A DNA stretch of 64,000 nt from Spirochaetia bacterium. Its GTDB lineage: Bacteria > Spirochaetota > Spirochaetia > CADAEX01. How positions within the stretch are numbered: position 1 is the first letter of the stretch; each line of letters opens with the position of its first letter. Positions 3,853 through 59,402 of this stretch are shown here, one piece after another. The position numbers and the translations under genes were made by a program. The DNA lies in contig CAXXHA010000010.1 of NCBI GenBank assembly GCA_963662265.2, positions 1 through 64,000 on the forward strand, written 5' to 3'. The notes below the pieces were generated by a model that saw only the letters and a program-made list of their open reading frames with translations, did not search any database and was not told where the DNA came from.

Positions 3853-3901
3853 TTGACAATAATATTAATAAGAACTACTCTATCTGTGAAATTTTTCACA
3901 G
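3853..3901 (+). promoter_or_regulatory. rex promoter with Rex operator
   Basis: TTGACA 3853-3858, 17 bp, TACTCT 3876-3881; palindrome CTGTGAA-ATTT-TTCACAG 3884-3901 matches the Rex consensus TTGTGAA-N4-TTCACAA. Confidence 0.8.
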
Positions 3902-3916
3902 GTGATATTATAAATT

Positions 3917-4546
3917 ATGGGAATACAGATACCCGAACCTACAATTGAAAGACTCTGCAAAGTCTACAGCCTGCTTGGCAGACTGAAAGAGGATGGAAGA
4001 ACAGCTGTTTCTTCATCTTCAATCGAGAGAAAAACAGGAATACCTGCCCATACAGTAAGAAAGGATATAAGCCAGGCAGGAAGCATAAAAAGCGGCAAAG
4101 AGGGCTACAGCATTGATGACCTTATGAATATTATAGGGAAAATCTTTGATTTCGGCTCACCCCGAAAAGCCTGCATAGTCGGTCTTGACATGATGGGAAG
4201 TGCAATTCTCAACAATAAACATATAAGTACGGAAGGATATGAAATTGCGGCAGGATTTGACAGCAATATAAACAGAATGGAAATGATGAATACAGATGTT
4301 CCGCTGTTTCCCACATATGAAATACCTGAAAAGGTTAAAGAGCTGTCTATAGATTTCGGAATAATTGCTGTCCGGCCTGAGAAAGCTCTTGAAACAGCTG
4401 AAAAACTGATTAAGGGGGGAATAAAGGGAATAATTAACTATTCCCCTATAATTCTTAACCTTGAAAATATTATAGTAAGAAATATTTATCTGGCAGAGGA
4501 AATCAGAATACTTTCTGCACTGATGGCAACTACTGATAAACAATAG
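3917..4546 (+). CDS. rex: Redox-sensing transcriptional repressor Rex
   Basis: IPEPTIERL...VRKDIS winged helix plus a Rossmann domain (GIKGIINYSP); the nucleotide-binding loop is divergent (VGLDMMG instead of GxGxLG). Confidence 0.85.
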   Translation: MGIQIPEPTIERLCKVYSLLGRLKEDGRTAVSSSSIERKTGIPAHTVRKDISQAGSIKSGKEGYSIDDLMNIIGKIFDFGSPRKACIVGLDMMGSAILNNKHISTEGYEIAAGFDSNINRMEMMNTDVPLFPTYEIPEKVKELSIDFGIIAVRPEKALETAEKLIKGGIKGIINYSPIILNLENIIVRNIYLAEEIRILSALMATTDKQ

Positions 4547-39991: not shown

Positions 39992-40666
39992 TTATTCTCG
40001 CATTAAATATATTACTTGTTTTCGAAACCAGGATCTTGGAGCCATTTTTCGATAATAGTTCACAATTAAATGAAATGAACATTTACCAAGTTTTTTCCCG
40101 CATCCACATGGACAAACCTTTTTATTTCCAACTCTTTTCTTAAGTCCCATAAGCCGAAATGCCTGGATAATTTGATAATCTTCTTCTAAACCTAATAGTA
40201 AAGAATAGTCATCCAAAGCTCCGGAATTCCCGTGGTCCAGTTCTCCGAACATAAAATCATCACCGTACTTTAATTTAACAGAGACAGCATAAAAGTAAGG
40301 GATTAAACATCTCTCTGCAAAAACAACCAGATCAGGAGAATTATTCACTATCGATAATAGACGGAGAGGAGATCCGAGACAGAGTGAACCGTCAGGATTT
40401 ACGTGAAAATCACCATTCTTAGGAATCCTCCCTTTTGTTTCTTTTACTACCGGAACTACTTGAGGAAAACCATAAGGAACTAAAAGTTCAATATTAAATT
40501 GGTCACAAATAGTTCCTCTGTTGTTTGTATCTGCAGTAAAACTAAATATTCCTCGAAGGTATATACCCAATTCAGATGATGGAGCAGTGGACATGCCCGG
40601 ATATTCGGAGAGAAATTTTTCTATTCCAAATTGTTTAGACTTTTCAAGCACATTTATACTCGCCAT
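39992..40666 (-). CDS. CBASS-associated prokaryotic E2-like protein with C-terminal SEC-C-type motif
   Basis: IELLVPYGFPQVVPVVKE and FHVNPDGSLCLG (UBC-like HxNxxGxxC), CPCGCGKKLGKC; overlaps the CD-NTase 3' end. Confidence 0.8.
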   Translation of the reverse strand: MASINVLEKSKQFGIEKFLSEYPGMSTAPSSELGIYLRGIFSFTADTNNRGTICDQFNIELLVPYGFPQVVPVVKETKGRIPKNGDFHVNPDGSLCLGSPLRLLSIVNNSPDLVVFAERCLIPYFYAVSVKLKYGDDFMFGELDHGNSGALDDYSLLLGLEEDYQIIQAFRLMGLKKRVGNKKVCPCGCGKKLGKCSFHLIVNYYRKMAPRSWFRKQVIYLMRE

Positions 40667-51962: not shown

Positions 51963-52109
51963 GTGGATCTGAAATTCTTATTTCATGATAATTGCACCAA
52001 GATGATTATGCCGTATAGATAAGAAGCTGCTTATCGGAAATCCGAGAGTACCGGGATTAAGTAACCGGGAAATACAATCAGCTACAGGCTGTGTGCAAAC
52101 TTGAATATT

Positions 52110-52143
52110 AAAAAGGCCTGCTTTGACAAGCAGGTCTTTTTTT
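52110..52143. terminator. Bidirectional terminator between the MCP and VOC genes
   Basis: AAAAAGGCCTGCTT-TGAC-AAGCAGGTCTTTTTTT. Confidence 0.8.
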
Positions 52144-52153
52144 AAAAGGGATT

Positions 52154-52636
52154 CTACATCCCCATGCTTTCAAGCCATTCCTTTTCATTCTTTTTCATCT
52201 CATCTTCAGTAAGCTTCCACTTATTTGTCGCTATAGCCCAGACATGGCCGAAGGGATCAAGGACTTTCCCCATCCTGTCTCCCCAGAATGCATCCATTAT
52301 TTCATCCACAATTTCAGATCCGTTTTCCACCATTCCATTGTAAACAGCATCACAGTCTTCAACATATATAAACAAGCTCACAGTAGTCCCGTTAATAGCA
52401 CCTTTCTCCACACCTCCCGGATAGGAATCAGCCATCATAAGATTTGTATCCCCAATTCTTATCATTGAATGCATTATCTTATCACTGCCTGGAAAACTGT
52501 AAGGGGGAAAAACAAGTTCCGCCCCCAGCACTTTCCTGTAATATTCAATAGCTTCTGAACAGTTTCCATTAAACCACAGATTAGCTGTTACATTGTTCAT
52601 CCCTTCTGGGACAGGTTTTAATGCTTTTTCAGCCAT
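52154..52636 (-). CDS. VOC/PhnB-family (glyoxalase-like) protein
   Basis: AIEYYRKVLGA, IMHSMIRIGD, DAFWGDRMGKVLDPFGHVW. Confidence 0.9.
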   Translation of the reverse strand: MAEKALKPVPEGMNNVTANLWFNGNCSEAIEYYRKVLGAELVFPPYSFPGSDKIMHSMIRIGDTNLMMADSYPGGVEKGAINGTTVSLFIYVEDCDAVYNGMVENGSEIVDEIMDAFWGDRMGKVLDPFGHVWAIATNKWKLTEDEMKKNEKEWLESMGM

Positions 52637-52907
52637 TAAAATTCTCCTTGTATAGAGATCTGTAAGTATGAATAATTAAGCCTTGAATTTTCTGTTTAAA
52701 CACCTGAAACATTTTATACCTTACTTTTATTAATAGTAGTTTCAAAATGATCTGTTTTCAAAAGAAACTCTTACATGAGGCTGTATTTACAATAAATTTT
52801 AATAAAATCAGATATTCTGAAGGCTTTATAAATTAAACAGGACGAAAATTCTTTCTTCAGGACCGGAAGATAATTTCATATTTAAACAAGCAGTGTTTTA
52901 AATATAA

Positions 52908-52971
52908 AATAATATCGATATTATTGTATCCAATATTGACATTTTTCTTATTCGATACTATATTATCCATA
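52908..52971 (+). promoter_or_regulatory. Unit 1 promoter with TATCGATA operator
   Basis: Palindrome AATAATATCGATATTATT 52908-52925; TTGACA 52936-17-TATATT 52959. Confidence 0.75.
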
Positions 52972-53237
52972 CAGGTTGGGCAAACAACCTGTAGGTGAAA
53001 ATATTTTGTTTTTGAGAAAATCAAAAATAAAAAAAGAAAATAGAATGTACGAAAGACCTCTGGTAAATGGCAAAATAATATCAGAAATAAGGTCTTTCAA
53101 TAAAAAAACTGCAAATACGTCCGGCAAAACAGTATTTGCAGTTATAATCTAAGACTTTTTTATAGATTCCTCCTAACCTTCTAAAAAGAGTTTTATTCAT
53201 GGGAACCTGCTGTAAGTTTTACAGCAGGTTCTTTTTT
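52970..53237 (+). ncRNA. Candidate structured sRNA of about 270 nt (unit 1)
   Basis: Lies between a promoter and a U-tailed terminator (53203-53237); three hairpins with GGCAAA in their loops and one hairpin exposing TTCCTCCT; no RBS-led ORF. Confidence 0.6.
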
Positions 53238-53576
53238 CATTATTACCTCCTGTAATAATGAGTTGTTATTTATAAAACTGCAGTGAGTTTCACTGCAGTT
53301 TTTCTTTTTGCTGGCCGTTGCTGCATAAACAGGCTTTTTATACTTATAATTCTGCATTTATTTCACAGACTTATCCGCTGATCACCTGGCAGAAATCTTA
53401 TATTTCCCTATTAACAGCTTTCAAGGACTCTAAAGCTGTTAAACTTATTTCAACAGTGTTTTATCCTCCCGGAATAATTCTAATTATCACGCAGTCTAAA
53501 CACTGTTTTGCCCATATTCCCATATGGAGCCCACCTGTCTACCTATCTAACTACCCAGAACCATGTAGATAAATTT

Positions 53577-53637
53577 TTATCGATAATTACATATCTTATA
53601 TTGACATTTTTTATTTTCGATAGTATGTTATCGATAG
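53577..53637 (+). promoter_or_regulatory. Unit 2 promoter with two TATCGATA operators
   Basis: TTATCGATAA 53577-53586; TTGACA 53601-17-TATGTT 53624; TTATCGATAG 53628-53637. Confidence 0.75.
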
Positions 53638-53676
53638 TTAGAGATTGAAATAAATAGTATTTCAAGGAGGACAATT

Positions 53677-53772
53677 ATGTTAGAAATTTTAATTGTAGCT
53701 ATTATAGCAGCTGGTGCAGTTTTTGCATTCATAGAAGACGGTCGTGTTAGTCCTAACGGAATCGACTGGTAA
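53677..53772 (+). CDS. 31-aa hydrophobic peptide MLEILIVAIIAAGAVFAFIEDGRVSPNGIDW
   Basis: AAGGAGG RBS 53664-53670, own promoter, paralogue at 54205; too short for the ORF track. Confidence 0.75.
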   Translation: MLEILIVAIIAAGAVFAFIEDGRVSPNGIDW

Positions 53773-53803
53773 TCTAGAAAAAACTTGTTTTGAGGAGATC
53801 AAA

Positions 53804-53947
53804 ATGAAAAAAATACTTAGTAAATTATCAGAAAGACCATTTATCAATGGCAAACAGAGACATATTAAAAAAGAAGGCCTTTCAATTAAGGCAGTTGCAG
53901 AAGCAACAGGAAAATCAATTGAATCTGTACTTTCAATGAAATTCTAA
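53804..53947 (+). CDS. 47-aa basic peptide with HTH-like C-terminus
   Basis: GAGGAG RBS, ATG 53804; MKKILSKLSERPFINGKQRHIKKEGLSIKAVAEATGKSIESVLSMKF. Confidence 0.6.
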   Translation: MKKILSKLSERPFINGKQRHIKKEGLSIKAVAEATGKSIESVLSMKF

Positions 53948-53991
53948 AACTTCTTTTTAACTTCAAACCTTCTAAATTTTGAGTTTTATTC

Positions 53992-54028
53992 AAAAGACCT
54001 GCTGAGCCGTATACAGCAGGTCTTTTTT
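53992..54028 (+). terminator. Unit 2 terminator
   Basis: AAAAGACCTGCTG/CAGCAGGTCTTTT stem plus T-run. Confidence 0.8.
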
Positions 54029-54102
54029 AATTTTTCAGTGAAAATCATTGATAACCTTTGTTCAGGAAGTAGATAAATAAAAATCATGCATTTTGATAAT
54101 AT

Positions 54103-54164
54103 ATTATCGATAATGCTGTATCCATACTTGACTTTTTCAGTTATCCTTTATACATTATCAATAA
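54103..54164 (+). promoter_or_regulatory. Unit 3 promoter with TATCGATA operators
   Basis: ATTATCGATAAT 54103-54114; TTGACT 54128-17-TACATT 54151; TTATCAATAA 54155-54164. Confidence 0.75.
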
Positions 54165-54204
54165 CTTTAAATACGATTTTAATAATCTTGTTAAGGAGGC
54201 CAGC

Positions 54205-54306
54205 ATGTTACTTATCAATACTTTAGTAATCATGGCTATTGCAGCAGGAGTTTTAGCTGCATTCATTGAAGATGGAAAAACAGCACCAAATTGCTGTGAC
54301 TGGTAG
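54205..54306 (+). CDS. 33-aa hydrophobic peptide MLLINTLVIMAIAAGVLAAFIEDGKTAPNCCDW
   Basis: TAAGGAGG RBS 54192-54199; shares IAAG...AFIEDG...PN..DW-stop with the 53677 peptide, with synonymous changes between them. Confidence 0.75.
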   Translation: MLLINTLVIMAIAAGVLAAFIEDGKTAPNCCDW

Positions 54307-54517
54307 AAAGTAGTCTGAAGATTTCAGATACTTGTAAAAACTGAAAACAATCAGTAGAAAGGTCTGTAATTTACAACAGGATTAACAATATAGAGAAAGG
54401 AAGACCTTTCACATTACATTCCATGATGCTGCAGCAAAAACAACAGAATCGGCATCCGGAATGTAAAACAAAAGACTTTTTAGATTCCTCCAAAATTCTA
54501 AAAAGAGTTTTATTTCC

Positions 54518-54550
54518 AGGCCCCGCAGCGTTGCTGAGGGGCCTTTTTTT
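54518..54550 (+). terminator. Unit 3 terminator
   Basis: AGGCCCC-GCAGC...GCTG-AGGGGCCT stem plus T-run. Confidence 0.8.
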
Positions 54551-54685
54551 CCCCCTTTCACGCAAATACCCATTCTCTCGGCAGCTTCATAAGATTTAAT
54601 AATAAAATTCCGCCTCTTGCGATTTATATGCATATCATGCAACTTCAACCATCCAGGTATTTTTACAAAATAATTACAGACTGTA

Positions 54686-54740
54686 TTGACTTTTTCCCTT
54701 TTCGATAGTATTATATCGATAACAAGTTACCGATAACAAG
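54686..54740 (+). promoter_or_regulatory. Unit 4 promoter with downstream operators
   Basis: TTGACT 54686-17-TATTAT 54709; ATATCGATAAC 54713-54723 and GTTACCGATAAC 54726-54737. Confidence 0.65.
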
Positions 54741-54802
54741 CAATATTTCTGATGGCCAGAAATGTTTGACTTTATAAATACAACTGGAATAAGGCTGGAG
54801 AT

Positions 54803-54835
54803 AAAAAAAATCCCGGATCCGAAGAACCGGGATTT
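54803..54835 (-). terminator. gdhA terminator, possibly also ending the unit 4 transcript
   Basis: A8 followed by the AAATCCCGG/CCGGGATTT stem. Confidence 0.75.
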
Positions 54836-54871
54836 ATATAAGCCTAATCAGGCTAAATATAAAACTATATC

Positions 54872-56209
54872 CTAGTAACCGAGATCAAGCATTGCATCTG
54901 CAACTTTCTTGAAACCGGCAATATTAGCACCGTTGATGTAGTTTACAAAACCTGAAGCATCTTTGCCTTCTCTAACACAAGCAGCGTGGATGTCTTTCAT
55001 GATTACTTTGAGTTTTGCATCAACTTCTTCAGATGACCAGTTGTATTTCATTGAGTTCTGGCACATTTCAAGACCTGATACTGCAACACCACCGGCATTA
55101 GCAGCTTTACCAGGACCAAACGGGATCTTGTTTTTAACAAACTCAACTGCAGCATCTGCAGTACAGCCCATGTTGGATGTTTCAACAACATATTTAACAC
55201 CGTTTGAGATAAGAGCTTTTGCATCATCGAGAGTAAGCTCGTTCTGGAAAGCACAGGGGAATGCCATATCAACTTTAAGTTCCCATGGTTTTTTACCTGC
55301 AACAAATTTTGCGCCGAATTTTTCAGCGTAAGGAGCTACAACATCATTGTTGGAAGCTCTGAGCTCAAGCATATAGTCAAATTTTTCTTTTGTATTGATA
55401 CCTGCTTCATCATAGATGTATCCGTCAGGTCCAGAAATTGCCACTACTTTACCACCAAGTTCAGTAGCCTTCATTACAGCACCCCAGGCAACATTACCGA
55501 AACCTGAAACAGCAATTGTTTTGCCTTTCATTGAATCATTGTTTGTTTTGAGCATTTCATCAGCAAAATACATTGTACCAAAACCAGTTGCTTCAGGTCT
55601 TACAAGTGAACCGCCCCAGTTAAGGCCTTTACCTGTGAGTACACCTGTGTTTTCAGCTCTGAGTCTCTTGTACTGACCATACATGAAACCGATTTCTCTT
55701 CCGCCTACTCCGATATCACCTGCAGGAACGTCAGTCTGAGGACCGATATATTTCTGAAGTTCTGTCATGAAACTTCGACAGAATCTCATGATTTCTGCAT
55801 CTGATTTACCTTTAGGATTAAAGTCTGAACCACCTTTACCTCCACCCATTGGGAGAGTAGTAAGACTGTTTTTGAAAATCTGCTCAAATCCGAGGAATTT
55901 AAGAGTTCCGAGAGTAACGCTTGGGTGGAATCTGAGTCCGCCCTTATATGGACCAATAGCGTTGTTAAACTGAACTCTGTAAGCCTTGTTTACCTGTACT
56001 TCACCGTTATCATCTTCCCATTCAACTTTGAACATGAAAGTTCTGTCCGGCTCAGTAATTCTTTCAAGGATTTTTGCATCTACATATGCAGGGTTGTCGT
56101 TAACTACATCAATAATAGATTCAACTACTTCTTTTGCAGCCTGAATAAATTCCGGCTGAGCTGGGTTTTTTCTTTCCAGTTCTGCCATAAATTCGTCAAG
56201 ATTATACAT
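54872..56209 (-). CDS. gdhA: NAD(P)-specific glutamate dehydrogenase
   Basis: GPYKGGLRFHPSV, LPMGGGKGGSDF, DVPAGDIGVG, RPEATGFG, GFGNVA; AAGGAG RBS before ATG 56209. Confidence 0.96.
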   Translation of the reverse strand: MYNLDEFMAELERKNPAQPEFIQAAKEVVESIIDVVNDNPAYVDAKILERITEPDRTFMFKVEWEDDNGEVQVNKAYRVQFNNAIGPYKGGLRFHPSVTLGTLKFLGFEQIFKNSLTTLPMGGGKGGSDFNPKGKSDAEIMRFCRSFMTELQKYIGPQTDVPAGDIGVGGREIGFMYGQYKRLRAENTGVLTGKGLNWGGSLVRPEATGFGTMYFADEMLKTNNDSMKGKTIAVSGFGNVAWGAVMKATELGGKVVAISGPDGYIYDEAGINTKEKFDYMLELRASNNDVVAPYAEKFGAKFVAGKKPWELKVDMAFPCAFQNELTLDDAKALISNGVKYVVETSNMGCTADAAVEFVKNKIPFGPGKAANAGGVAVSGLEMCQNSMKYNWSSEEVDAKLKVIMKDIHAACVREGKDASGFVNYINGANIAGFKKVADAMLDLGY

Positions 56210-56414
56210 TTCTAACAGCTCCTTAAAACATTTTAATACCACCCCTCAGGGCGGTATTACTTATCTATATATAAAGCCTATTTCTGATATTAATCAAGTA
56301 TTAATATTGGCCTATCTATACATCTATACAAGTTAAATCATGAATATTGTTGATATTTAACATAGTGGTGTATTATTATTAAGAAAACGAACATTCTTTT
56401 TTAAGGAATTTACA

Positions 56415-59402
56415 ATGAATAATCCTCTTGCATCCAAGTTTCATTTCAAGGAAACCCCATTTAAACAGCTTATGGATAAAAGGATAAATGACATACTCCT
56501 TGTATGCAGCAAATATGACAAATTCATGCTTGATGAAGACGGCAGAATTGATGAACAGCTTTTCCAGGAATATGTGTCCCTCAACCTCCGCTATCCTCCC
56601 CGTTTCACACATGTTTCAACAGAGGAAGAAGCTTTTGAAAAGCTCTACACGGAGAATTTCGACCTTGTAATTACAATGCTCAACTTCAAGGGAACACTCG
56701 TTCTTGACCTTGCGGAAAACATAAAAACAGCATATCCCGATATACCTGTAGTTGTATTGAGCCCGTTTTCAAAGGCTATTTCAAAGAAACTTCAGGCTCT
56801 TCAAAATGTCAAGGCAGACTATATTTTCTCATGGCTCGGCAATGCAAGGCTGCTGCTGGCAATTGTAAAACTTATTGAGGATAAAATGAATGTTGAGCAT
56901 GATGTGGAAATCGCAGGTGTTCAGACAATTATTCTTGTAGAAGACTCAATCCGTTACTATTCAAGTTACCTGCCCAACATATACAGGCTTCTTTTCCGGC
57001 AGGCCAGAAGGATTATGGAAGAGGGGTTAAATGAATATCAGCAGAATACAAGGATGAGAGGAAGGCCGAAAATTCTCCTTGCAACTTCCTATGAGGAGGC
57101 TATCGAGCTTTATGAAAAATACAAGAACAATACTCTCGGTGTAATTTCCGATATCGGATATAAACGGGAAGGTGTTGAAGACCCTGTTGCAGGGCTGAAA
57201 CTGAGCAGACTGATTCGGGAGGAAAACACAGATGTTCCCATACTGCTTCAGTCGGCCCAGCTTGACCTTAAGGAGGAGGCCTCCACATATAACGCATCCT
57301 TTATCTACAAGCACTCTGAGACCCTGCTTAAAGAGCTGAGAGACTATATCAAAGACAATTACGGCTTCGGAGACTTTATATTCAAAGACCCTGAAGGGAT
57401 GACTCTTGAAAAGGCGAGAAACCTCAAAGAGCTTCAGGAAAAACTCGCAATTGTTCCAAACTATTCTGTCGAACACCATATCAGACAGAACCACTTTTCA
57501 AAGTGGATGAGGGCAAGAGCGCTTTTTACACTTGCAGAAATTTTCAAGCCTATCCAGCTCAAGGATTTTGACGGGTCTCTTCTTGAGACAAAAAAGTATC
57601 TTATTGAAATTATCAAGCTCTACAGAAAACAGACCGGAAAGGGTTCAATCGCAAGTTTTGACAACAACAGGTTTGATGATTTTACATCATTCGCAAGAAT
57701 CGGGGACGGTTCACTCGGGGGAAAAGCAAGAGGTCTCGCTTTCATTGATAATATAATTAAAAGGCATGACCTTCTGTTCAAATACAAGAACATAACAATC
57801 AGTATCCCTAAAACAATTGTTCTTTCAACATCTGTCTTTGAAGATTTCATGGACCTAAACAACCTGTACAGTACAGCTCACTCAATAAAAACAGACAAGC
57901 TTATGTTAAACGCGTTTCTCCAGGCGGAACTGCCGGAATATATGCATGAATATATAAAAACAATCCTGACTGTAGTAACCAGGCCTATTGCAGTAAGATC
58001 ATCCAGTCTTCTCGAAGACTCACTCTACCAGCCTTTTGCGGGAGTTTATGCAACATACATGCTTCCAAACAACAACGAAGACCTTAAAATCAGGTGTCTT
58101 CAGCTGGAACAGGCTGTAAAAAGTGTTTTTGCATCAACATATTCCAGAAAAAGCAAGGCATATATTTCTGCAACAAAAAATGTAATTGACGAGGAAAAAA
58201 TGGGTGTAATAATCCAGGAAGTGACCGGACAGGAGCATGACGGGTATTTCTATCCCGATTTTGCAGGAGTTGCCAGATCATACAACTACTACCCTCTTCC
58301 TAATGAAAAAACTGAAGAGGGGATAGCAGATATTGCTCTGGGGCTTGGTAAGACTGTTGTTGAGGGGGGAACAGGCCTGAGATTTTCACCTTCCCATCCA
58401 AAAAAAAACATAATGTTTTCTTCAGTTGATACTGCCCTCAAATCAAGCCAGAAAGTTTTTCACGCCCTGGACTTAAGCCCGTACAGTTTTACTCCTTCGA
58501 TAGACCAGGAGGAAAATATTCCCCGTCTGGATATTGACAGGGCATTTGAAAACCCGACATTCAAGTATATCGGATCTACATATGACATGCAGAACAATGC
58601 AATCAAGGACACAGTAAATGCTCAGGGAAAGAAAATTGTTACATTTGCCGGAATTCTCAAGTACAAAATGTTTCCCATTGCAGACATACTCAAGGAACTA
58701 CTTGCAATAGGTCATGAATCAATGCAGTGCCCTGTTGAAATTGAATTTGCTGTCAATTTAAGCCCGAATCCTGAAATACCGCACAAATTCAGCTTTCTTC
58801 AGATCAGGCCGATAGTAGAAGGGCTTGAAGCGATTGACCTCAATATCAACAACTACACAAAAGAAGATAAAATTATCCATTCAGATAAAGCCCTCGGAAA
58901 CGGAAAATATGAACAAATTCATGATTTTGTTTATATAAAACATGAAAGCTTTGATCCTGCACATACCCAGACTATGGCAGATACCCTGGACAGGATAAAC
59001 AACCAGTTTATTGAAGAAGACAGGAACTATATTCTCGAAGTTCCGGGCAGGCTGGGATCATCAGATCCGTGGCTGGGTATTCCTGTAAGCTGGGCCCAGA
59101 TATGCAATGCAAGGGTAATCATAGAATCCGGTCTTGAAAATTTCCAGGTTGAACCAAGCCAGGGGACCCACTTCTTCCACAATATAACTTCACTGAATAT
59201 TGCCTACTTCACAATCAACCCGTTTTATAAAGACGGATTTATCAACCTTGACTTCCTTAAAGAAGCAGAGGCTGTTTACGAGGATGAATTTATAAGACAC
59301 ATAAGGTTTGAAAAAACAATAAAGGTATTTGTTGACGGCAAGGACAGAAAAGGAATTATACTGAAACCGGGAGTAGGCGCTATTGATATGATGAACCTTT
59401 AA
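56415..59402 (+). CDS. PEP-synthase/PPDK N-terminal (ATP-grasp) domain protein with receiver-like N-terminal domains
   Basis: GSLGGKARGL, AVRSSSLLEDS..QPFAGVY, EEKMGVIIQEV, VEIEFA..LQIRP, PSQGTHFFHN; N-terminal ILLV.../LVEDSIRYYS receiver-like segments. Confidence 0.85.
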   Translation: MNNPLASKFHFKETPFKQLMDKRINDILLVCSKYDKFMLDEDGRIDEQLFQEYVSLNLRYPPRFTHVSTEEEAFEKLYTENFDLVITMLNFKGTLVLDLAENIKTAYPDIPVVVLSPFSKAISKKLQALQNVKADYIFSWLGNARLLLAIVKLIEDKMNVEHDVEIAGVQTIILVEDSIRYYSSYLPNIYRLLFRQARRIMEEGLNEYQQNTRMRGRPKILLATSYEEAIELYEKYKNNTLGVISDIGYKREGVEDPVAGLKLSRLIREENTDVPILLQSAQLDLKEEASTYNASFIYKHSETLLKELRDYIKDNYGFGDFIFKDPEGMTLEKARNLKELQEKLAIVPNYSVEHHIRQNHFSKWMRARALFTLAEIFKPIQLKDFDGSLLETKKYLIEIIKLYRKQTGKGSIASFDNNRFDDFTSFARIGDGSLGGKARGLAFIDNIIKRHDLLFKYKNITISIPKTIVLSTSVFEDFMDLNNLYSTAHSIKTDKLMLNAFLQAELPEYMHEYIKTILTVVTRPIAVRSSSLLEDSLYQPFAGVYATYMLPNNNEDLKIRCLQLEQAVKSVFASTYSRKSKAYISATKNVIDEEKMGVIIQEVTGQEHDGYFYPDFAGVARSYNYYPLPNEKTEEGIADIALGLGKTVVEGGTGLRFSPSHPKKNIMFSSVDTALKSSQKVFHALDLSPYSFTPSIDQEENIPRLDIDRAFENPTFKYIGSTYDMQNNAIKDTVNAQGKKIVTFAGILKYKMFPIADILKELLAIGHESMQCPVEIEFAVNLSPNPEIPHKFSFLQIRPIVEGLEAIDLNINNYTKEDKIIHSDKALGNGKYEQIHDFVYIKHESFDPAHTQTMADTLDRINNQFIEEDRNYILEVPGRLGSSDPWLGIPVSWAQICNARVIIESGLENFQVEPSQGTHFFHNITSLNIAYFTINPFYKDGFINLDFLKEAEAVYEDEFIRHIRFEKTIKVFVDGKDRKGIILKPGVGAIDMMNL

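Follow-up and report, generated by a model that had tools for sequence, protein, structure and literature searches.

What occupies the 2.2-kb gap (positions 52637-54871) that separates a glyoxalase-family open reading frame (ORF; 52154-52636, minus strand) from gdhA, also on the minus strand, in a genome of the class Spirochaetia? The window analysed here is the 64,000-nucleotide stretch at contig C10:1-64000 of that genome (G000; 3.77 Mb, 38.5% G+C), which was compared with its two congeners, the sister genomes G001 and G002. A preliminary description of the gap had proposed four paralogous, co-regulated transcription units, a family of dual-function small RNA/microprotein genes under one repressor. 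Our analysis points to a genus-specific cluster of three paralogous small units plus an orphan promoter, predicted to be repressed by the Rex-family protein Rex-A, to respond to NADH and to carry CCUCC hairpins acting in trans, a reading to which we give a probability of about 0.55.

The promoters were examined with a consensus scan that scores matches out of 12 and was compared with shuffled sequence. It recovered the four plus-strand promoters of one design at 52936, 53601, 54128 and 54686, all with 17-bp spacers and 9-11 matches; promoter-like sites in the region number 17, against 10.7 ± 3.2 in shuffles. The octamer TATCGATA occurs six times in the window versus 0.65 ± 0.85 expected (0 of 100 shuffles reach six), and five of these copies lie inside the gap. 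Those at 52913, 53578 and 54105 end exactly 15 bp upstream of the -35 hexamers of units 1-3, and those at 53629 and 54714 overlap the -10 hexamers of units 2 and 4, respectively, by one base, the final one of the hexamer. Units 1 and 3 carry one-mismatch octamers at the same -10 position (TATCCATA at 52964 and TATCAATA at 54156, respectively), so the placement described earlier, upstream of the -35 in units 1-3 and at the end of the -10 in all four, held throughout. The sole copy outside the gap (40349-40356) lacks a second half-site at operator spacing, with up to 2 mismatches allowed, and is therefore probably a chance occurrence. Across the genome, the octamer by itself shows no enrichment (102 copies versus about 118 expected from base composition); the meaningful element is an 18-bp palindrome rather than the octamer. 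When the sites are read together, its consensus is TCGATA-N6-TATCGA.

Sites of this type flank or cover each predicted promoter. In unit 1, the promoter TTGACA-17-TATATT (52936-52964) follows an operator TCGATA-N6-TATCCA at 52915-52932, one mismatch from the palindrome and containing TATCGATA (52913-52920), and a second one-mismatch operator spans the -10 (52952-52969). The unit 2 promoter, TTGACA-17-TATGTT (53601-53629), is preceded by two operators within 53566-53597 (53566-53583, one mismatch; 53580-53597, two mismatches) that have the TATCGATA at 53578 in common; a perfect 18-bp operator at 53617-53634 lies over its -10 hexamer (53624-53629), with a weaker overlapping site at 53631-53648, and the operator centres are 37 and 51 bp apart. 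Unit 3 has two upstream operators with one mismatch each (54093-54110 and 54107-54124, together 54093-54124) ahead of the promoter TTGACT-17-TACATT, which with the degenerate TATCAATA at 54156-54163 extends over 54128-54163. The operator covers the -10 hexamer in units 1, 2, and 4, and in unit 3 the degenerate octamer stands there. A near-identical strain, seen in contigs from public sequencing runs (10 differences in 2301 nucleotides), has C>T changes at 54123, 54138, and 54153 in the promoter/operator region of unit 3.

We then considered how the operator is distributed. Perfect 18-mers occur twice in the 3.77-Mb genome, both within the gap, and one-mismatch copies 18 times. Seventeen of these 20 sites are intergenic, as called from a crude ORF map under which about 84% of the genome is coding, and 8 of the 17 fall in the gap. 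Two others precede rex-A and two precede a GGDEF-ODP gene; single sites stand before an EIIA-CBS gene, an NADH-oxidase-like flavoprotein gene and a Zn alcohol dehydrogenase gene, within a C_GCAxxG/NuoE-like cluster, and about 690 bp from an EtfB-like gene (assignments by Pfam). Four sites with 2 mismatches belong to a sensory Fe-hydrogenase-like gene; two of them contain perfect TATCGATA octamers, which stand on either side of a TTGACA-17-TATAAA promoter, the layout of the array. Compared with a reversed-pattern control, the operator is more frequent in G000 (20 versus 13) and G001 (14 versus 8), is not over-represented in G002 (7 versus 8), and is under-represented in 17 genomes of other genera taken together (26 versus 99). 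The sites upstream of rex-A are kept in both congeners despite diverged flanks, and G001 also has sites before the orthologues of the hydrogenase-like and EIIA-CBS genes and before an Fe-alcohol dehydrogenase-like gene. A single type of operator is found at every predicted promoter of the gap; it marks out a putative regulon that is small and conserved, and it is common to the promoter of rex-A itself and to redox and fermentation genes, as in a Rex regulon. Three overlapping operator-like sites with 14-bp offsets (G000:C35:48095-48149) lie before a GGDEF protein with an ODP domain, of the diiron, oxygen-binding type; this hints that cyclic di-GMP signalling is part of the same regulon.

Which protein would read these sites? 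Rex-A (C1:273842-274465) contains the Pfam domains Put_DNA-bind_N and CoA_binding. Full-length alignment with solved Rex structures (E = 1e-34) matches the NAD(H)-binding motifs, GxGxxG and the Asp after it, and the NAD(H)-binding fold is retained. Classic Rex regulons include NADH-oxidase, alcohol dehydrogenase, and hydrogenase genes together with rex itself, and an 18-bp inverted repeat has the footprint size of Rex dimers. Because the sites sit at rex-A itself and the content of the regulon fits Rex regulons, the TCGATA-type operator probably belongs to Rex-A, its predicted binder. The genome encodes three Rex homologues. One lies in the window (3929-4528, plus strand), is about 30% identical to Rex-A, and is preceded at 3884-3901 by a canonical-type box, CTGTGAA-N4-TTCACAG; since this paralogue carries the canonical box, the operator is assigned to Rex-A rather than to it. 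The other paralogue (G000:C32:118700-119299) is 50% identical to Rex-A. Orthologues of Rex-A were found only in G001 and G002 (95% and 76% identity), and the Rex homologues of 17 other genomes of the family are at most 33% identical to it. The canonical Rex operator is TTGTGAA-N4-TTCACAA, as excerpts of its description give it (PMC2883068), and no match to this box with up to 2 mismatches is present in the gap. A limited literature search, which is no proof of absence, found no published description of a TCGATA-type Rex operator and, among the papers listed, no mention of Spirochaetes. Rex-A, a divergent, lineage-specific paralogue, would have a new operator specificity. Of the single repressor proposed in the preliminary description, the common operator and its conserved regulon stood, and for the identity of the repressor we infer Rex-A.

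The three units differ in their cargo. They align with one another and have in common a GAAAG..CTTTC stem and a TTCTAAA..GAGTTTTATT block, which bears out their paralogy, and each has an intrinsic terminator of its own, found in the scan for unit 1 (53201-53233 and 53274-53302; 5 sites in the region versus 1.1 ± 1.1 in shuffles) and, for units 2 and 3, visible in the folds at 53996-54022 and 54518-54544, respectively, each followed by a T run. All parts described here are on the plus strand. Unit 1 lacks a conserved ORF. Unit 2 holds a gene for a 31-aa membrane microprotein (53677-53772), with a GGAGG Shine-Dalgarno sequence upstream, and one for a 47-aa helix-turn-helix (HTH)-like microprotein (53804-53947), preceded by GAGGAG; its 3' untranslated region and terminator occupy 53948-54028. 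Unit 3 combines a gene for a 33-aa membrane microprotein (54205-54306), a paralogue of the unit 2 peptide, with a structured non-coding tail (54307-54551). This is the cargo that had been described. A DNA search of the genome found no further copies of the units, and a dispersed repeat was ruled out on that result.

The 47-aa ORF is conserved in G001 (83% identity) and G002 (66%), and its codon differences between G000 and G001 are 11 synonymous and 8 non-synonymous. Nine homologous clusters of 39-48 aa were found among 5.8 billion proteins. A survey of 400 further genomes of the class gave matches over the full length in the two congeners only; six more genomes had weak partial matches (E = 5e-4 to 9e-3), located within long ORFs except in one genome, where the frame is stop-interrupted. 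The AlphaFold2 model (predicted local distance difference test score 77) has helices at residues 2-9, 21-24, 28-35, and 39-46, a predicted pattern compatible with an HTH. Foldseek returned no match at E ≤ 0.001, its top rows being HTH domains over about 25 residues; the best Pfam E values of 0.018-0.25 (HTH_24, HTH_38, HTH_58, and HTH_3, in one or two of three members) are below threshold, as are the PHROG matches to HTH families. The best hit of a PDB sequence profile (E = 0.12) was to unrelated proteins, and the ESM Atlas gave leads only, namely unnamed clusters and small HTH_3-type clusters at 0.87-0.91. A tblastn search of phages and plasmids gave no match, and a homodimer prediction for the protein, scoring 0.02, spoke neither for nor against a dimer.

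The 31- and 33-aa peptides consist of a hydrophobic helix with an AIAAG core followed by FIEDG and a terminal DW. Their synonymous/non-synonymous codon differences between G000 and G001 are 8/7 and 10/5, and eight short representatives (30-44 aa) were found among 1.84 billion proteins; a ninth match was dropped as a repeat within an 897-aa protein. In G000, the two copies in the array are the only ones. G001 has a third, stand-alone paralogue (33 aa, ending in KKEW; G001:C1, about 2611690-2611790) with its own Shine-Dalgarno sequence and terminator; its surrounding 550 bp hold neither a CCUCC hairpin nor a TCGATA-type operator, and no counterpart was found in G000. Neither microprotein gave anything above threshold in Pfam, NCBIfam, or PHROGs, and the gap gave no Rfam match, in line with the earlier remark that the family was not recognised. 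Because both ORF types show a coding signature and have database homologues, they are real conserved microprotein families and are predicted to be coding.

The tails of units 1 and 3 align at the DNA level with the 47-aa ORF, with the frame broken. In unit 1, the Shine-Dalgarno sequence and start codon are lost, and no ORF is common to unit 1 of G000 and G001. As their alignment indicates, these tails are putative RNA derived from the 47-aa gene. The predicted non-coding RNA of unit 1, about 270 nucleotides (52971-53240), begins with a 5' hairpin (52971-52992) followed by the hairpins P1 (53051-53098), P2 (53107-53143), and P3 (53150-53195; loop UUCCUCCUAACCU at 53167-53179) and the terminator at 53201-53233 with its U run; its fold z-score is -9.2 on the plus strand and -6.05 on the minus strand. 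The stretch 53241-53312, 81% identical to G001, comprises another small hairpin, whose loop is CUCCU (about 53242-53262), and the terminator at 53274-53302 with its T run. In the unit 3 tail (fold z = -7.1), the P1 arms are at 54357-54365 and 54402-54410, P2 at 54414-54466, P3 at 54470-54511 with a CCUCC loop at 54485-54496, and the terminator at 54518-54544 is followed by a U run. CCUCC hairpin loops are thus predicted in units 1 and 3, and they also occur in G001 and G002.

We compared these structures across 7 unit copies from the three genomes; helices were tabulated directly, as whole-tail MAFFT/RNAalifold alignment misaligned unit 1 of G001. Of the 4 RNA-only copies, 3 have a P1 stem (GAAAG.../...CTTTC) of nine uninterrupted pairs and the fourth has six pairs plus two wobbles, and among these copies pairing is kept through AT-to-GC and CG-to-TA exchanges. 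In all 3 coding copies, P1 is interrupted at the sixth pair, where the mismatch occupies the third, synonymous position of a Gly codon. Between species, the sequences of P2 and of the second terminator have changed, and their hairpins persist. The P3 loop shows UUCCUCC in 5 of the 7 copies, and two substitutions in P3 of G001 unit 3 give G.U pairs, compatible with a plus-strand RNA only. Conservation was read against the 185 four-fold sites of gdhA, 60% of which are identical between G000 and G001. The P3 and terminator of unit 1 are identical at 92 of 95 positions (97%), the ORFs at 82-87%, the promoter/operator blocks at 81-91%, and the spacers at 31-58%. The unit 2 3' untranslated region, a P3-homologous block without CCUCC, is 64% identical. 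Compensatory and wobble changes, together with a core conserved far above the neutral level, thus uphold the earlier view of the RNA-only tails as structured. An Rfam cmscan of 52000-55500 at E ≤ 1 gave four chance-level hits (OrzO-P, mir-126, Thr_leader, and STnc490), none at half the gathering score. A covariance model of P3 plus terminator matched 0 of 150 other genomes of the class, a sample without G001 and G002. A loose metagenome pattern scan for the CCUCC block gave at least 118 non-specific hits; the microproteins were found in none of the 118 listed (best tblastn E = 0.67), and the 4 listed loci that passed a screen for TATCGATA plus a T run were unrelated sequence.

Unit 4 had been described as a fourth paralogue with an RNA of roughly 115 nucleotides, and this part of the description did not survive. 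The promoter, TTGACT-17-TATTAT, and its two operators (54702-54719, perfect; 54716-54733, one mismatch) together span 54686-54733 on the plus strand, and only in this promoter/operator region does unit 4 resemble unit 2 (80% over about 52 nucleotides). The downstream stretch of about 115 nucleotides has no conserved ORF or motif and ends in the terminator of gdhA, a hairpin with a minus-strand T run (54808-54835) that on the plus strand would be a weak terminator at best. In G001 and G002, no such promoter/operator set lies between the terminator of the last unit and the gdhA stop codon. Unit 4 is probably a duplicated orphan promoter aimed at the 3' end of gdhA; as a speculation, it may drive antisense transcription into that gene.

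The sister genomes suggest how the array arose. Units 1-3 also stand next to gdhA in G001, in unchanged order, and G002 has a single unit in which operators and a promoter are followed by a 48-aa ORF and by a CCUCC hairpin with a terminator, so that synteny with gdhA, as anticipated, extends to both congeners. Contigs of public sequencing runs that hold this organism also contain relatives with a single-unit junction, in which the unit 1 promoter leads to P3 and the end of gdhA, and one contig end joins the 3' end of the HTH ORF directly to P3. In contigs from two samples, the spacer that separates unit 1 from unit 2 is shorter in related organisms, and single-unit loci also occur. Beyond the genus, homologues were not found in 40 relatives searched with DNA, 400 genomes of the class searched with protein, or 150 searched with the covariance model, which are samples and no proof of absence; conservation in relatives, which the preliminary description had expected, is therefore seen in G001 and G002 but in none of the genomes sampled beyond them. 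Because the single unit of G002 holds both the ORF and the CCUCC hairpin, a dual-function ancestor is suggested, and the simplest reading of the sequences would be an ancestral unit of that kind followed by duplication and partition. Dual function itself, as claimed earlier, stands in part: unit 3 pairs a membrane peptide with a CCUCC hairpin and the G002 unit pairs a 47-aa-type ORF with one, but no unit of G000 clearly joins a coding 47-aa ORF to a CCUCC hairpin.

Put together, these features outline a possible mechanism. The ancestor would have been a small mRNA for a 47-aa HTH-like microprotein with a 3' CCUCC anti-Shine-Dalgarno hairpin beside its terminator. After duplication, unit 1 would have lost the ORF and become a pure small RNA; unit 2 would have retained it, gained the 31-aa membrane-peptide ORF, and lost the CCUCC loop; and unit 3 would combine the 33-aa membrane-peptide ORF with an RNA-only tail bearing a CCUCC loop. 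At low NADH/NAD+, repressor bound to the operators next to the -35 and over the -10 would occlude RNA polymerase. Because the operator recurs at rex-A and at redox genes and is conserved in the sister genomes, the units are probably de-repressed as NADH/NAD+ rises, and they would be transcribed alongside NADH-oxidase-like, alcohol dehydrogenase, and hydrogenase-like genes, whose products would be NAD+-regenerating enzymes. The CCUCC hairpins would then most plausibly act in trans by base-pairing with the ribosome-binding sites of mRNAs, forming a redox-responsive post-transcriptional arm by analogy with RoxS/RsaE, and the membrane and HTH-like peptides would act on partners of their own. The sequences themselves show the anatomy and paralogy of the units, their conservation and coding signatures, covariation of structure, and a common operator with a conserved regulon. 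We infer the identity of the repressor, the response to NADH, transcription, the trans mechanism with its targets, and the functions of the microproteins. The fullest version, in which a dual-function 47-aa HTH mRNA/anti-Shine-Dalgarno RNA ancestor subfunctionalised in tandem and was wired to a Rex paralogue of new specificity as an NADH-responsive post-transcriptional module, is tentative and clearly less probable than the cluster reading itself.

Several observations weigh against the reading of the gap as a Rex-A-repressed cluster with trans-acting hairpins. The promoters, transcript ends, and expression are all predicted. The operator is wholly unlike the canonical Rex box, and its assignment to Rex-A draws on the autoregulation-like placement of sites and on regulon content. 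The 47-aa HTH-like protein, moreover, co-occurs with the motif as well as Rex-A does, which raises the alternative that this microprotein, and not Rex-A, binds the operators, making the gap an autoregulated mini-regulator locus that also controls rex-A and the redox genes. Microprotein, motif, and array are confined to the same three genomes, the best operator sits at the promoter of the microprotein's own gene, and the weak HTH-type matches in Pfam, PHROGs, and Foldseek point the same way. However, a protein of 47 aa shows no obvious domain for dimerising on an 18-bp palindrome; the repeat has the size expected for a Rex dimer, the NADH-oxidase-like, alcohol dehydrogenase, and hydrogenase-like genes with rex are the classic Rex regulon, and Rex-A is equally lineage-restricted with two conserved sites at its own promoter. 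We consider binding by the microprotein unlikely. On the RNA side, the structural evidence comprises only 7 copies in 3 genomes, and P1 and P2 of unit 1 (52% identity) could be drifting relics. That unit 4 is seen only in G000 and that the evolutionary polarity rests on one outgroup genome plus contig fragments also count against the reading. On a further explanation, function would be confined to unit 2 as a two-microprotein operon, and unit 4 in its entirety and the tails of units 1 and 3 would be duplicates of the 47-aa gene that are decaying and have no role as RNA: the tails do derive from the ORF, the former ORF region of unit 1 is the part with only 52% identity between species, and unit 4 is strain-specific. 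Decay is nonetheless improbable given a P3/terminator core that far exceeds the identity of neutral sites, promoters and operators of units 1 and 3 that are 81-88% conserved, P1 pairing that improved after loss of the ORF, and wobble changes that are strand-specific.

For the proposed action in trans, target prediction yielded no outlier. Nearly any Shine-Dalgarno sequence can pair with a CCUCC loop, and the ribosome-binding sites of the locus itself rank 237-1175 among 1414 sites with a strong Shine-Dalgarno sequence, with the gdhA site average. An excess of complementarity to the locus's own sites, apparent against shuffles, was rejected after it disappeared against the background of real strong Shine-Dalgarno sites. 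The same ranks bear on a type I toxin-antitoxin-like arrangement, in which the 31- and 33-aa peptides would be membrane toxins, held in check by the CCUCC RNAs as antitoxins blocking the ribosome-binding sites of the peptides. Such an arrangement would account for the hydrophobic helix followed by a charged tail, as in Fst-type toxins, for anti-Shine-Dalgarno hairpins encoded beside the peptides, and for some duplex energies that beat mononucleotide shuffles. Yet the peptide sites are not outliers, no convincing antisense promoter and terminator pair lies over the peptide genes, the third peptide paralogue of G001 stands alone, and redox-type co-regulation is atypical of such systems; extended complementarity of an antitoxin to the toxin mRNA was not found. 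It appears decidedly improbable to us, more so than decay or binding by the microprotein. An anti-Shine-Dalgarno hairpin beside a terminator also resembles an expression platform, as if the units were cis-acting, riboswitch-like leaders or attenuators of a downstream gene, but no plus-strand gene follows any unit, gdhA is convergent, every unit has its own promoter and terminator, and Rfam at E ≤ 1 gives noise only, so that this explanation has almost nothing to recommend it. The cluster of Rex-A-repressed units with trans-acting hairpins is the reading that we retain.

Known systems offer partial parallels. Excerpts of work on RoxS state that Rex represses it in B. subtilis, that unpaired C-rich motifs of RoxS/RsaE can pair with Shine-Dalgarno sequences, and that a role in rebalancing NAD+/NADH has been proposed (PMC5419742). 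The array resembles RoxS/RsaE of Bacillus and Staphylococcus in the putative Rex-family operator at a predicted small RNA promoter, and its CCUCC loops are candidates for pairing of that kind. It differs in having no Rfam sequence or structure match, a CCUCC loop instead of C runs, the operator TCGATA-N6-TATCGA, a spirochaete host, and several paralogues, some with microprotein ORFs. With the Rex family, the repressor shares the domain pair and full-length alignment and the regulon an 18-bp inverted repeat over core promoters, including that of the repressor itself, whereas the half-site is unrelated to the canonical box as excerpted (PMC2883068). Like dual-function small RNAs, unit 3 and the G002 unit place a small, conserved, predicted coding ORF and a distinct conserved RNA element, predicted to base-pair, on one short putative transcript; unlike them, the functions are apparently split among tandem paralogues, with unit 1 RNA-only and unit 2 protein-only. 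SR1/SR1P, SgrS/SgrT, and RNAIII/delta-haemolysin are examples of such dual-function RNAs, and Qrr1-5, LhrC1-5, and PrrF1/2 are tandem multi-copy small RNA families. As in the latter, neighbouring paralogues here carry the site of one regulator, but they differ in cargo, with peptide genes gained or lost, and not in sequence alone. With the type I toxins Fst and Ldr, the array shares peptides of about 30 aa with an N-terminal hydrophobic helix and charged tail and predicted structured small transcripts; it differs in having no overlapping antisense RNA and no complementarity above background.

Around the array, gdhA (54872-56209, minus strand; Glu/Leu/Phe/Val dehydrogenase, Pfam ELFV_dehydrog, E = 7e-83) adjoins the units in all 3 genomes. 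Its longest ORF (54872-56242) opens with GTG at 56242, and orthologues begin at the Met equivalent to 56209. A hairpin in its 5' untranslated region (AATACC...GGTATT) is kept in G001; G002 has another hairpin in its place. Divergent from gdhA, a 995-aa ORF (56415-59402) contains a response-regulator receiver and a PPDK_N (pyruvate phosphate dikinase AMP/ATP-binding) domain. The spacer between units 1 and 2 (53313-53560) is poorly conserved (31% alignable to G001), and an 84-aa ORF within it has no family match. The target scan also returned five identical short ORF start regions with a 76-aa frame (G000 C10:175565, C29:74131, C5:40462, C8:26049, and C8:57216), possibly a fragment of a repeated mobile element.

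The practical weight of these findings is limited, as they concern uncultured metagenome-assembled genomes and evidence at the level of sequence. Two previously unannotated microprotein families are added. If the reading is correct, Rex-controlled riboregulation, known from RoxS/RsaE in Firmicutes, would extend to Spirochaetia by way of an unrelated RNA, and Rex-A would be an example of a Rex paralogue with a switched operator specificity. The array would also offer a clear natural series in which a dual-function unit gave rise to RNA-only, protein-only, and chimeric paralogues, and so a case of interconversion between a coding gene and a small RNA.

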